Counted from the stretch's first letter, positions 22,935 to 28,879 are shown. The stretch: 64,000 nt of DNA from Escherichia coli (GCF_003334335.1 NZ_QOWQ01000003.1); one strand, 5' to 3'. Made by a program: numbers and translations. The notes: generated by a model from the sequence alone, not told the origin.

Positions 22935-23747
22935 TCAGCACTCAACAAACTGATGCTGTTCATTAAGACGATAGCGGACTCCGGCTCGAATATTGTTTTC
23001 ACCTTCAATGGCGACGGCGAAGCGAACTCTTTCGCCGTCATGATATGCCAGTGCGGCGCTTCCTCCTGGCCCGAGAATAATTGAGTCGACCACGCCCGTG
23101 CTCACTACCGTTGAATTTTCACCGCTGGCAATGATGTGTACATTGTCGCCGCTGTTGGCAATTCTGGCGTTTGCGCCAAAGCTGGCGATTTGCACCAGGT
23201 CACCATTACTGGCGACATGACACCGTTCACCCAATGTACAAACGCGTACTCGCATTCCGGTATTCGCAATCCGACTGCTATCTCCAGCGCTGCTTATCCG
23301 CGAAGAATTACCGGTTACAGCAACCCGTGCGCGTTCACCGGAGCTGCCAATGTGACTGTTAAAGCCGACACTTCCAATCCGCACGCTATAACCCATACTG
23401 GCAATTTGCGCGGCATACCCAGCGGTTGCGATTCTGGCGTTATCCTCACAACAGCCGATGCGAGCATGATCGTCGCTGCGGGCAAACTGACTGCAAAATG
23501 GTCTCTCTCCGGGGTCTGTGGCCAGTTTTTGCATAGAGGAAACTTCCTGATGCGCGAAGTTTTCATCCGCCAGCCATTTTTTCCACGCATACTCAACCAG
23601 ACTCTCCGCCCAGTCCGTATATCCTTCCTCAATCAGTGCATGATGAATATCGGCATAACTACCGCCGCGTGGGAAATGGCGCAGGAACCAGCGATACATC
23701 ACCGCTCCGATACGCCATTCTCGCAGGTCTGCTTGTGTAATGATCAT
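22935..23747 (-). CDS. ydhT: YdhT, last gene of ydhYVWXUT operon; contains about 15 tandem 9-residue repeats
   Basis: ORF track 270 aa; repeats xRIAS-xG-xx across residues ~86-220. Confidence 0.87.
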   Translation of the reverse strand: MIITQADLREWRIGAVMYRWFLRHFPRGGSYADIHHALIEEGYTDWAESLVEYAWKKWLADENFAHQEVSSMQKLATDPGERPFCSQFARSDDHARIGCCEDNARIATAGYAAQIASMGYSVRIGSVGFNSHIGSSGERARVAVTGNSSRISSAGDSSRIANTGMRVRVCTLGERCHVASNGDLVQIASFGANARIANSGDNVHIIASGENSTVVSTGVVDSIILGPGGSAALAYHDGERVRFAVAIEGENNIRAGVRYRLNEQHQFVEC

Positions 23748-23750
23748 TCG

Positions 23751-24536
23751 TTAGTGCCGGTGATAGCCATCGACCATGCTTTTAAAGGTTTCGTGTGGCG
23801 TACGCCCCGTGGTGCAAAGATAAAGATGACCGAAGATAAAAAAGAGGCTTATAAATGCCAGAGCAAAATGTGTCTGCAATAACCAGTATCTTACGCCAGG
23901 AAACACATCTCCCACGGCTTGCGGATAGAGACACAGCAGCCCCGTCAATAGTAACAACGGCAGCAATCCATACATGACACCAACATAGGCGACCTGCTGT
24001 AAGGGATTAAATTTAGACTGGGTTGTTGCCGGGAAAGGATGTTCTTCCCCCTGCATAATGCCAAACAAATAAAATCGCGTTTGTTTTGCCGCTCGTTCCA
24101 GCCACCCCTGACGACGAATGCGATAGTGGTGACCATTATCCCCAACGGCATTGATCAGCACAAAGCCGAGCCAGCATGCCAGTAACAAAAATCCGCAAAC
24201 TTCATGCACCGCAACCAGACTTTTAACCGCAGTTGCGCCCACCATCGCAAAGTGATTTATCAGCCCACTGGCCAGCAACAATACAAAGAGTAACGCATTC
24301 GACCAGTGCCATAATCTGACCGCTTTGCTGTAAAGATAAATCTTCTCACCATGATCGGTGGCTGATTTCTTCACGCCACGAGCACGAAGCAAGGCATGCA
24401 GCCCCAGCACCAACCACATCCCAACCAGCAATACTCCGGCAATGATCAACCACACCGGCCAAAATTCGGGAGTGAACTGTGGCACATAGTTCGCTAACTG
24501 GCTCTGAAACTGTTCAGCATGTTGCGACGGGTTCAT
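23751..24536 (-). CDS. ydhU: PhsC/NrfD-like membrane cytochrome b subunit YdhU
   Basis: ORF track 261 aa; several TM helices with conserved His; 4-bp overlap with ydhX. Confidence 0.87.
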   Translation of the reverse strand: MNPSQHAEQFQSQLANYVPQFTPEFWPVWLIIAGVLLVGMWLVLGLHALLRARGVKKSATDHGEKIYLYSKAVRLWHWSNALLFVLLLASGLINHFAMVGATAVKSLVAVHEVCGFLLLACWLGFVLINAVGDNGHHYRIRRQGWLERAAKQTRFYLFGIMQGEEHPFPATTQSKFNPLQQVAYVGVMYGLLPLLLLTGLLCLYPQAVGDVFPGVRYWLLQTHFALAFISLFFIFGHLYLCTTGRTPHETFKSMVDGYHRH

Positions 24537-25201
24537 ACATTTTCCTTTTTAATCAAATGTTGACCGAACCGGCGATACAGATGCGGTTTCCCGGCACCAG
24601 GTAGCTGATATTGATAGTATTTATTTTGCTGCAACCACGCCTGAATTTCTGGGCTATCTTCGCGACCAAAGATCAATGCGTGTTCCGGGCAGGCGCTGAC
24701 GCAAATGGGCGGAAAGCCTTTTGCCAGTCGGGACTCAGCGCAGAAATCACATTTATCTGCCACTTTAGTGACAGGGTTAAGGTAGCGAACCTGGTACGGA
24801 CAAGCGCCAATGCAATAACTGCAGCCGATGCACTGCGATTTTTCTACCCGCACGATCCCCTGCTCATCACGCCACGACGCCCCCGTCGGGCAAACGTCGA
24901 TGCACGGAGCATCTTCGCAGTGCTGACATGACTGGCGAAAAAAGTGATACTGCGTTTCGTTGTCGTTATCGGTGACTGGAATGTGTGCTATCGATAAACG
25001 GCTTCCCTGAGCGGGGACGTGGTTAGTTTTACGGCATGCGCGGGCGCAAATATTACAGCCATTGCACCGTGACTCGTCATGAATCATGGCATACCGAACT
25101 TCCTTTTCTTGCCTCGTGTTCGCTAACAGAGAAGACGCAGAACCAGTAAAAAAGATTACTGTTCCCATCCCCAGAACAAATTTGCGTCGAGTGAAGGACA
25201 T
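24533..25201 (-). CDS. ydhX: Ferredoxin-like 4Fe-4S protein YdhX with twin-arginine signal
   Basis: Start chosen at MSFTRRKFVLG (Tat motif) with upstream SD; four CxxCxxCxxxCP-type cysteine clusters; ORF track gives a longer upstream extension. Confidence 0.85.
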   Translation of the reverse strand: MSFTRRKFVLGMGTVIFFTGSASSLLANTRQEKEVRYAMIHDESRCNGCNICARACRKTNHVPAQGSRLSIAHIPVTDNDNETQYHFFRQSCQHCEDAPCIDVCPTGASWRDEQGIVRVEKSQCIGCSYCIGACPYQVRYLNPVTKVADKCDFCAESRLAKGFPPICVSACPEHALIFGREDSPEIQAWLQQNKYYQYQLPGAGKPHLYRRFGQHLIKKENV

Positions 25202-25264
25202 CTGATTATCCCCTAATGCAGTGGCTGCAACTGTCCACCCTATCCATGACATCTCCCTGAAATT

Positions 25265-28018: not shown

Positions 28019-28038
28019 GATTTTTTCCTTTGCAAGAT

Positions 28039-28665
28039 TCACACAGTAATATCTTTCCACTCGATAATTTTTAACGCCCCTGTTGGGCAGGCGTTTGCGC
28101 ATTCACCGCATAACACACATTTCGAGGATTTTTTACTTTCGGTATTTACGGTGGCCATCATCCACGGGCATGCCGTAGTACAGGCGCTACAGCCAATACA
28201 GCGTTTATGATCGACGGTAATACAGCCTTCTTTCTGCTGCCAGGTAATCGCACCAATCGGGCAGACGTTCATGCATTGCGGCTCTTTGCATTGACGGCAG
28301 GTGTCCGCGGTATAGTTGAGATCGCCATACAGGCCGCCGCCAGAGCCAACCCCGTTGTCGCCAAAGAAATAATTGCGATGGATTTTGATACGGGAGAAGA
28401 ATGTCCCTACTGAGCCATCGTTGAAGTTGGTACAAGAGATTTCACAGCGGTGGCAACCCGTGCATCGCGCTCGCTGGGTCACCAGCACCCCTTTGGGGGT
28501 ATTTATCAACCCTACTGTGCCGCTATCAATATCTTCCTGTTTGCAACCCAAAAGTGACAGTAACGCAGGGGCAATTGTTAGACCAGCAAGGCCTTTTCCT
28601 TATATACGCAAGAATTCTAATCGCGTTAAGCCAATATCTAATAGTGGACGATCAACCGGGTTCAT
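28039..28665 (-). pseudogene. ydhY: ydhY ferredoxin-like subunit, reading frame interrupted by in-frame TAA at codon 22
   Basis: SD GAGGA + ATG at 28665 gives MNPVDRPLLDIGLTRLEFLRI, then TAA (plus strand TTA 28600-28602), then the same frame continues GKGLAGLTIAPALLSLLGCKQ... through four Cys clusters to stop at 28039. ORF track finds only the 170-aa remnant from TTG at 28551. Confidence 0.55.
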
Positions 28666-28865
28666 TTATTTCGCATCCTCTTCGCAAACACAGTGCTGAC
28701 AATTCAGCAGCCTGATATTAAGCATTCAACTAATACGCTGCTGACTCTGTCCCCAACACCAGATATTTTCCCTAACCCGATAGTGTATGAGAAAAGATTA
28801 ACGCCGATAAACTAATCCTTTATGGTTAGGAGAAAAAATAATGTGATTATTCTGAGCCCTTAACA

Positions 28866-28879
28866 TTGATCGTTATCAA
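28866..28879. promoter_or_regulatory. FNR box TTGAT-N4-ATCAA upstream of ydhY operon
   Basis: Exact consensus TTGATcgttATCAA read directly, about 200 bp upstream of ydhY ATG; the operon is known to be FNR-activated. Confidence 0.6.

Follow-up and report, generated by a model that had tools for sequence, protein, structure and literature searches.

The FNR-controlled ydhYVWXUT operon of Escherichia coli: a predicted YdhU-anchored reductase complex built on an AOR-family molybdoenzyme, with a premature stop in the ydhY of the window

What does the ydhYVWXUT operon of Escherichia coli encode, and could the strain from which our sequence derives still make a working product from it? We analysed a stretch of 64,000 nucleotides (GCF_003334335.1, NZ_QOWQ01000003.1; hereafter the window) in which the operon and its upstream FNR box occupy positions 22935 to 28879. 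Probably this is an FNR-controlled operon for a periplasm-facing reductase complex anchored by the cytochrome YdhU, and it is inactivated in the source strain, if the base call is correct, by a nonsense codon in ydhY (S22*). The operon is already known, named and regulated, and the gap concerning its substrate is already recognised; as a system it is not new.

The six genes run in the same direction on the minus strand, with spacings from ydhY to ydhT of 20, 3, and 63 nt, a 4-bp overlap, and 3 nt. This arrangement of short gaps and one overlap, described in the initial annotation, is confirmed by the coordinates of the open reading frames (ORFs) and by the RefSeq annotation; the name ydhYVWXUT is likewise right, RefSeq and the NCBIfam equivalogs being in agreement on it. 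All six proteins exceed the cut-offs of their dedicated NCBIfam equivalogs by a wide margin (YdhY being scored as the K-12 sequence). Over its full length the segment 22800-29400 is identical to E. coli K-12 MG1655 (NZ_CP032667.1) at 6,599 of 6,601 bases, and it was matched in each of 5,426 complete E. coli genomes, with at least 80% query coverage in 5,398 of them: ydhYVWXUT is an operon of the E. coli core genome. The K-12 operon (b1674-b1669; Partridge et al. 2008; Reschke et al. 2019) is the same locus, with the same gene order, FNR site and neighbours (fumD upstream, the convergent ydhS downstream), and differs by two substitutions private to the window, ydhY S22* and ydhV G262S. For comparison, 34 related loci were retrieved with an 11-sequence subset of the YdhW alignment, and the genes were mapped on each; the counts of conserved residues given below refer to these loci.

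The catalytic subunit of the system is encoded by ydhV (25916-28018, minus strand; 700 residues). Its assignment to the aldehyde:ferredoxin oxidoreductase (AOR)/WOR family is borne out by the Pfam domains AFOR_N (PF02730, E 1.6e-67) and AFOR_C (PF01314, E 9.8e-48) and by NCBIfam NF007354 (1372 bits), and its matches among PDB sequences are AOR, FOR, WOR5, and BamB only. Pyrococcus furiosus AOR (PDB 1AOR) has the same domain architecture, and the [4Fe-4S] ligands C288/C291/C295 of that enzyme align with C307/C310/C314 of YdhV (CxxCxxxC), which are invariant in the 34 loci. The two proteins differ at the catalytic site: in a low-scoring local HMMER alignment the AOR segment 'GPEYET' (PEYE, with Glu313) faces 'VPSTGG' (PSTGG) of YdhV, followed by Cys336, which is invariant in 34/34 loci. 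From this alignment the classical second-shell glutamate of AOR appears to be missing in YdhV. Cys336 has been described as a metal ligand like Cys322 of BamB, the AOR second-shell residues being missing (PMC12096430). The equivalence of the two cysteines rests on that publication; in our HMMER searches, with single sequences or profiles, the catalytic domain of BamB gave no alignment with YdhV. Because the classical glutamate is missing and the Cys ligand is present, for this protein the label 'AOR-family' is not to be equated with 'aldehyde oxidoreductase'. YdhV binds molybdenum as a bis-molybdopterin cofactor (Mo-bis-MPT), and the bis-molybdopterin guanine dinucleotide form (bis-MGD) is not inserted (PMC9103625); it prefers molybdenum over tungsten (PMC13328260). 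Its homologue CsWOR41L showed no activity on 46 aldehydes, and the Class V WORs as a whole are without an assigned role (PMC13328260). The statement that the substrate of the ydh system is undefined therefore still holds, as the literature of 2022, 2025 and 2026 gives neither a substrate nor an activity (PMC9103625, PMC12096430, PMC13328260).

YdhY and YdhX had been called ferredoxin-like, and both are 16-Cys proteins by NCBIfam and by their invariant cysteines. In YdhX (24533-25201, minus strand; 222 residues) the 16 invariant Cys fall into CxxCxxCxxxC-type groups, amounting to four [4Fe-4S] motifs, and the best NCBIfam match is NrfC (249.8 bits, under the equivalog cut-off). The N-terminus of YdhX, MSFTRRKFVLG, carries a twin-arginine (Tat) signal (TRRKFVLG) and has been catalogued as such (PMC7549933). 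YdhY (28039-28665, minus strand; 208 residues in K-12, from which we scored it at 436.7 bits against NF007382) has 16 invariant cluster Cys in addition to the invariant Cys41 and Cys148. The long Tat-type signal at its N-terminus combines a T-R-L-E-F-L-R motif with a hydrophobic region and the lipobox LLGC, and takes the form GLTR(L/Q/K)(E/D)FLRISGKGLAGLTIAPALLSL(L/F)GC in the E. coli clade. There are no consecutive arginines in the E. coli protein, the second position being L, Q or K throughout the proteobacterial clade. Homologues of at most 57% identity have a canonical (S/T)RR(D/E/Q)F(L/M)K, then the same SGKG, hydrophobic region and L-x-G-C lipobox; Cys41 of the lipobox SLLGC is invariant in 34/34 loci and present in most of the distant homologues. 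Since the distant proteins join the twin arginine to the same SGKG and lipobox, YdhY appears to descend from a Tat-signal, lipobox-bearing subunit, of which the second arginine was probably lost in the lineage that has YdhX and YdhU. An uncleaved signal anchor is an alternative for the present state of YdhY. In the 2026 WOR classification the S subunit of Cetobacterium is credited with a Tat signal (PMC13328260), and a 2014 genomic survey predicted a periplasmic subunit; the degenerate motif of E. coli YdhY found no mention in the literature examined.

The membrane partner is YdhU (23751-24536, minus strand; 261 residues), a b-type cytochrome predicted to be the anchor on the quinol/quinone side. 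The initial annotation had called it 'PhsC/NrfD-like', a label that merges two unrelated families of membrane anchors. The PhsC part stands, the b-type cytochrome domain PF01292 (E 5.6e-31) being the sole Pfam match at E <= 0.001; the NrfD part does not, as no NrfD-type domain (PF03916) was found even among weak Pfam matches up to E = 10. YdhU reaches 458.6 bits against NF011582 (cut-off 204), has weaker NCBIfam matches to HyaC-type and FdnI-type cytochromes, contains five hydrophobic segments, and carries nine histidines (His47/77/95/111/137/166/223/237/259) that are invariant in 33-34 loci; by these features it is best classed as a PhsC/HyaC-type five-helix cytochrome b. The name given to ydhU by the Prokaryotic Genome Annotation Pipeline (PGAP) and NCBIfam is 'phsC, thiosulfate reductase cytochrome B subunit'. 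As the operon has no PhsA-type subunit, this name is a transfer by similarity and could mislead automated metabolic reconstruction.

With these subunits in hand two other functions can be weighed. An ordinary cytoplasmic aldehyde:ferredoxin oxidoreductase, served by YdhY and YdhX as its soluble ferredoxins, is what the RefSeq product name 'aldehyde ferredoxin oxidoreductase' implies, and structurally solved AOR and FOR proteins do match the N-terminal domain of YdhV strongly (E 1e-50 to 1e-60). We hold this to be very improbable: YdhX carries a Tat signal, YdhY has a signal-like N-terminus with canonical RR in distant homologues, a membrane cytochrome b belongs to the same operon, and in YdhV the position of AOR Glu313 is not conserved, the Cys ligand is present, and the homologue is inactive on the aldehydes tried. 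A reductase for sulfur compounds such as thiosulfate or polysulfide, at which the PGAP name of ydhU hints, has somewhat more in its favour, namely the score of YdhU above the NF011582 cut-off and an overall resemblance to PhsABC in combining a catalytic subunit with a 16-Cys ferredoxin and a cytochrome b; sulfur-compound phenotypes were reportedly mentioned by Partridge in 2008. It too is improbable, seeing that YdhV is an AOR-family protein and not a PhsA-type bis-MGD enzyme, that bis-MGD is not bound, and that the thiosulfate-reductase family name reached YdhU by similarity only. Membership in the PhsABC thiosulfate reductases as such was rejected, the sole catalytic subunit in the operon being of the AOR family. 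The likeness to PhsABC and NrfABCD extends to a Tat-exported 16-Cys ferredoxin (YdhX, nearest to NrfC), a PhsC-type cytochrome b anchor and FNR control. The differences are a catalytic subunit of the AOR superfamily instead of a bis-MGD or multihaem protein, a second ferredoxin, the presence of YdhW and YdhT, and the lack of an NrfD-type subunit.

The perfect FNR box that had been reported upstream of the operon was found at 28866-28879 on the minus strand (TTGATCGTTATCAA / TTGATaacgATCAA; centre at 28872.5); it is a published class II activator site at -42.5, confirmed by chromatin immunoprecipitation sequencing (ChIP-seq). Direct activation of ydhYVWXUT by FNR through this -42.5 site is documented in PMC3688515 by in vitro evidence and a ChIP-seq peak, with reference to Partridge 2008. 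In the window this is the sole perfect TTGAT-N4-ATCAA; 0.11 such boxes are expected per window by chance, and at least one match occurred in 11 of 100 shuffles, so that the motif count is only mildly unusual and weak evidence by itself. What makes the box solid is its position, its conservation and the published ChIP-seq. In all 26 Escherichia and Citrobacter loci with enough upstream sequence the half-sites are perfect and the central 4 bp vary (AACG, GACG, AGCG, GATG, AATG), a pattern that reads as a clean phylogenetic footprint. No FNR box with up to one mismatch was found at an equivalent distance in the Budvicia, Brenneria and Telmatospirillum loci; Budvicia aquatica has a single one-mismatch match, 324 bp upstream of ydhY.

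In class II FNR promoters the box is centred about 41.5-42.5 bp upstream of the transcription start, and a -35 element is dispensable. The ydhY promoter has the TTGAT-N4-ATCAA at the published -42.5 together with a candidate -10 element. Subtracting 42.5 from the centre of the box places the start at about 28830 and predicts a 5' leader of about 165 nt (28666-28830, minus strand); the candidate -10 hexamer CATTAT (28838-28843, minus strand) lies in the conserved block CACATTAT, 29-34 bp downstream of the box centre and at -13 to -8 relative to that start. Cross-species alignment brought out a 7-2-7 inverted repeat, TAACCAT-AA-AGGATTA (28813-28828, minus strand; about +3 to +18), which matches the NarL/NarP heptamer consensus at 6/7 positions in each half and is kept in 7/8 aligned Escherichia/Citrobacter promoters. 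It is by this alignment only that the element is seen, a search of the ydhY promoter with the strict NarL heptamer (TACYYMT) giving no match. NarL/NarP repression is reportedly named in the title of Partridge 2008, and the repeat, as a putative site, would suit the reported repression by nitrate and nitrite.

Can the operon still work in the source strain? Base 28601 is T in the window and G in K-12, which turns codon 22 of ydhY from TCA (Ser) into TAA (28600-28602, minus strand). This stop falls in the YdhY signal peptide, within an SGKG stretch that includes Ser22 and is kept from Escherichia to distant Firmicutes-like homologues. Translation of ydhY yields MNPVDRPLLDIGLTRLEFLRI*, and ORF calling returns only a remnant of 170 residues with a TTG start: the gene has no intact ORF in the window, a fact that the initial annotation overlooked. 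As S22* interrupts the conserved signal peptide of a ferredoxin subunit and should deprive the complex of that signal-bearing subunit, the operon is predicted to be inactive here; it is probably non-functional in the source strain, provided that the base call is correct, and the nonsense codon may also exert polarity on the downstream genes. The second difference from K-12, at base 27235, changes Gly262 of YdhV into Ser (G262S) and is probably mild, since position 262 is variable in orthologues (G, K or T). Neither allele occurs in any of the 5,426 complete E. coli genomes, as the best matches all score as K-12 does, with two mismatches.

The stop could instead be an error of sequencing, assembly or editing, the operon being intact in the real organism. 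Besides the absence of S22* from the complete genomes, what speaks for this is the company that it keeps: relative to K-12 the whole window has 19 scattered substitutions and a 73-bp insertion of the repetitive extragenic palindromic (REP) type, and 11 of the 14 coding changes are non-synonymous, as random errors or unselected mutations would give. Such a pattern is better explained by errors or unselected mutations than by old polymorphism. Against an error stands the insertion, which is present in natural isolates (99.8% identity); the window is thus K-12-like, yet its source is not simply MG1655, and it is no mere corrupted copy of that genome. Disruption of the operon can moreover pay in the laboratory, transposon mutants of ydhU having gained fitness in 10 of 12 chemical stresses, and its loss may be neutral or beneficial in culture. 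We regard an error as possible, albeit the less likely explanation, and retain a genuine null allele as the preferred one.

That YdhW and YdhT are proteins of unassigned function was supported by a scan of our local library, in which neither had a Pfam-A match; newer protein-database labels for YdhW/YdhT are PF27264 'YdhW_C' and PF27195. YdhW (25265-25912, RefSeq start 25903, minus strand; 215 residues) is predicted to fold as a tandem winged helix, its profile found no match among PDB sequences, and it has 519 representative homologues at 50% clustering. Its gene accompanies those of L and S in operons of as few as three genes (PMC13328260), and no molybdenum cofactor (Moco) chaperone is known for YdhV (PMC9103625). 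From gene linkage and the modelled fold we infer that YdhW may be a dedicated assembly or escort factor. YdhT (22935-23747, minus strand; 270 residues) has no signal peptide; its model shows an N-terminal five-helix domain (residues 1-76), then a beta-solenoid of a 9-residue repeat (residues 87-270). The 47 database homologues of YdhT are all enterobacterial, and it is probably a lineage-specific accessory protein.

How would the products work together? The scheme starts from established elements (FNR-dependent transcription, the cofactor-binding motifs, the YdhX Tat signal, and the cytochrome b nature of YdhU). The products would assemble as a membrane-anchored complex on the periplasmic face, in which electrons from quinol would pass through the two haems of YdhU to YdhX, then to YdhY and to the Cys-ligated Mo-bis-MPT site of YdhV, a path through eight or nine Fe-S clusters, and a periplasmic acceptor would be reduced at the molybdenum centre. 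YdhV, itself without a signal peptide, would be exported folded while attached to the Tat-signal-bearing ferredoxin subunits; YdhW would remain in the cytoplasm as an assembly or escort factor, and YdhT would serve as an accessory confined to the Enterobacterales.

Activation by FNR with repression by NarL/NarP is the pattern of low-potential terminal reductases in E. coli respiration, and by this analogy the regulation of ydhYVWXUT favours a terminal reductase over a dehydrogenase. The complex might nevertheless run in reverse, as a periplasmic dehydrogenase in which a donor is oxidised at YdhV and electrons flow through YdhY, YdhX and YdhU to the quinone pool. The characterised AOR-family enzymes mostly run oxidatively on aldehydes, and FdnI and HyaC, which share the Pfam family of YdhU, serve dehydrogenases. 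We consider this direction unlikely in view of the regulatory pattern, of the fact that BamB, the closest mechanistic relative, is a reductase, and of the failure of a clade member to oxidise aldehydes.

Several points weigh against the periplasmic reductase that we prefer and against its loss in this strain. That the complex faces the periplasm and passes electrons in the direction given is inferred, because for this clade neither an activity nor a substrate is on record and no holoenzyme has been purified. The YdhY signal of E. coli has a single arginine, and Tat export by such a signal is only putative. The residue after Cys41 is Lys and not Asp, and by the sorting rule for E. coli lipoproteins a residue other than Asp after the lipobox Cys directs the protein to the outer membrane, which fits poorly with a complex of the inner membrane. 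The role of YdhW rests on gene linkage and fold, and winged helices also bind nucleic acids. In one study the transcript of the operon in MG1655 was below RNA detection. The scattered, mostly non-synonymous differences described above count here as well.

Beyond K-12, one of the close described systems is Class V WOR clade 41, represented by CsWOR41LSW of Cetobacterium somerae (PMC13328260), in which the counterparts of YdhV (L), YdhY (S) and YdhW (W) are linked in the same way; its S subunit has a Tat signal, and no activity is known for it (PMC13328260). Compared with CsWOR41LSW, E. coli adds YdhX, YdhU and YdhT, prefers molybdenum over tungsten, and lacks TupABC (PMC13328260); in its S subunit the twin arginine has degenerated to R-L. 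BamB resembles YdhV in its AOR/WOR fold (the N-terminal domain matches that of YdhV at E 7.7e-47) and, according to PMC12096430, in having a Cys metal ligand and in missing the AOR second-shell residues. It differs in being a cytoplasmic tungsten protein of the electron-bifurcating complex BamBCDEFGHI, whereas the Ydh system is molybdenum-preferring and has Tat signals and a membrane cytochrome b. AOR of P. furiosus, too, is a cytoplasmic tungsten enzyme.

Among the related loci the gene order Y-V-W-X-U-T is common to Escherichia, Citrobacter, Budvicia and Brenneria, and a Telmatospirillum metagenome-assembled genome has Y-V-W-X-U without T. Identity to the E. coli proteins descends from YdhV (78-99%) through YdhY (75-95%), YdhX (65-97%), YdhU (55-95%) and YdhW (44-92%) to YdhT (36-95%), a gradient that fits a catalytic core with accessory proteins evolving faster. 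Citrobacter sp. NCU1 has two ydh clusters on two contigs (L017 and L027). In the second (L027) both fumD and ydhT are missing; the YdhV encoded there shares 85% identity with the E. coli protein and has diverged around the Cys ligand (GGSSCVVAERHTS versus GGNTCVANFVHTT), and the promoter of this cluster has kept the FNR box and lost the 7-2-7 element. The cluster may represent a paralogue whose specificity or regulation has changed. In locus L006 (positions 124-2155; a contig of Logan SRR27257900) a distant homologue of YdhW, 26% identical, is followed by a gene for a FdhD/NarQ-family sulfurtransferase and by two TatA/E genes, an arrangement that echoes the one in Cetobacterium (PMC13328260) and would connect the YdhW family with Tat export and the sulfuration of the cofactor. 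Three distant YdhW homologues, this one among them, lie on contigs of 2-3 kb with fragmentary context, which besides FdhD with TatA included a 4Fe-4S protein.

The remaining features of the upstream region lie around the promoter. The very AT-rich tract noticed beside the FNR box is a 207-bp intergenic segment (28880-29086; 75% A+T) between the fumD terminator hairpin (29115-29087) and the box. The best Fur-box-like sequence of the promoter region (28914-28932, minus strand) matches at 14/19 positions, which is consistent with the reported Fur peak; that peak and Fur regulation of the operon are described in PMC7157518. The best Fur-box match in the whole window, GTTAGTGATAATGATTATC (38615-38633, plus strand; 16/19), stands upstream of sufA, and, as part of the known Fur-regulated suf promoter, served as a positive control in judging the weaker site at ydhY. 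An Rfam scan of 22700-29450 at E <= 1 gave no match, so that the leader does not represent any known riboswitch, the Moco motif included. The Shine-Dalgarno sequence of ydhY, GAGGA (28676-28680, minus strand), is in a block conserved in Escherichia and Citrobacter.

Ahead of ydhY lies a Cys-rich upstream ORF of 19 codons, MLNIRLLNCQHCVCEEDAK (28666-28722, minus strand), whose TAA abuts the ydhY ATG. It is kept in 5/5 Escherichia loci, in one of them with a GTG start. In Citrobacter it takes the form of 13 codons, MCCC(Y/H)(C/S)VCEEDAK, in some loci, and in many the start codon is missing; its stop is lost in C. sedlakii, it is interrupted in one Citrobacter locus, and its conserved 3' part overlaps the ribosome-binding site. 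A Cys-rich leader-peptide attenuator was set aside, as the ORF is startless or interrupted in many Citrobacter loci, and a working leader peptide is only weakly supported. At the other end of the operon the stop codons of ydhT and the convergent ydhS are 11 bp apart (22924-22934). No terminator-like hairpin was found between them, the nearest minus-strand candidate being inside ydhS (22729-22712); transcripts from either side should hence run antisense into the other gene.

The substitutions relative to K-12 are at positions 131, 476, 3168, 3256, 4995, 8534, 9680, 10113, 10170, 14498, 19346, 19528, 27235, 28601, 33748, 35501, 37583, 51400, and 52392 of the window, and the 73-bp insertion is near 10175-10233, between sodB and ydhP. 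Apart from ydhV G262S and ydhY S22*, the non-synonymous changes are sodB G63V, sufS D322Y, sufD G160D, lhr T19P, punC A134T, ydhQ T263I and S324G, and ydiO T6N and M337V.

For work on the system it follows from the above that the window sequence is a probable null allele and a poor template, that recombinant constructs should respect the conserved export and lipobox signal of YdhY, that YdhW is a candidate chaperone to co-express, and that aldehyde oxidoreductase assays should be avoided for YdhV. E. coli has no bis-MPT (AOR-family) molybdoenzyme other than YdhV. Neither for this protein nor for the rest of its clade has a reaction been assigned, a problem that the initial annotation restated without advancing it. 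In catalogues of human gut metagenomes YdhV ranks first in abundance among WOR-family proteins (PMC13328260). As a tentative proposal that goes further, and that we think more likely wrong than right in its entirety, YdhY would be a Tat-derived lipobox signal anchor whose twin arginine decayed in the E. coli lineage after YdhX and the cytochrome b had joined, with YdhV hitch-hiking through export on YdhX; YdhW would be the private maturation chaperone of this bis-MPT enzyme; and S22* would mark a lineage that has discarded the system. If this were true, YdhW would represent a new fold among redox-enzyme maturation proteins, and the lineage marked by S22* would be either a natural or a laboratory one.

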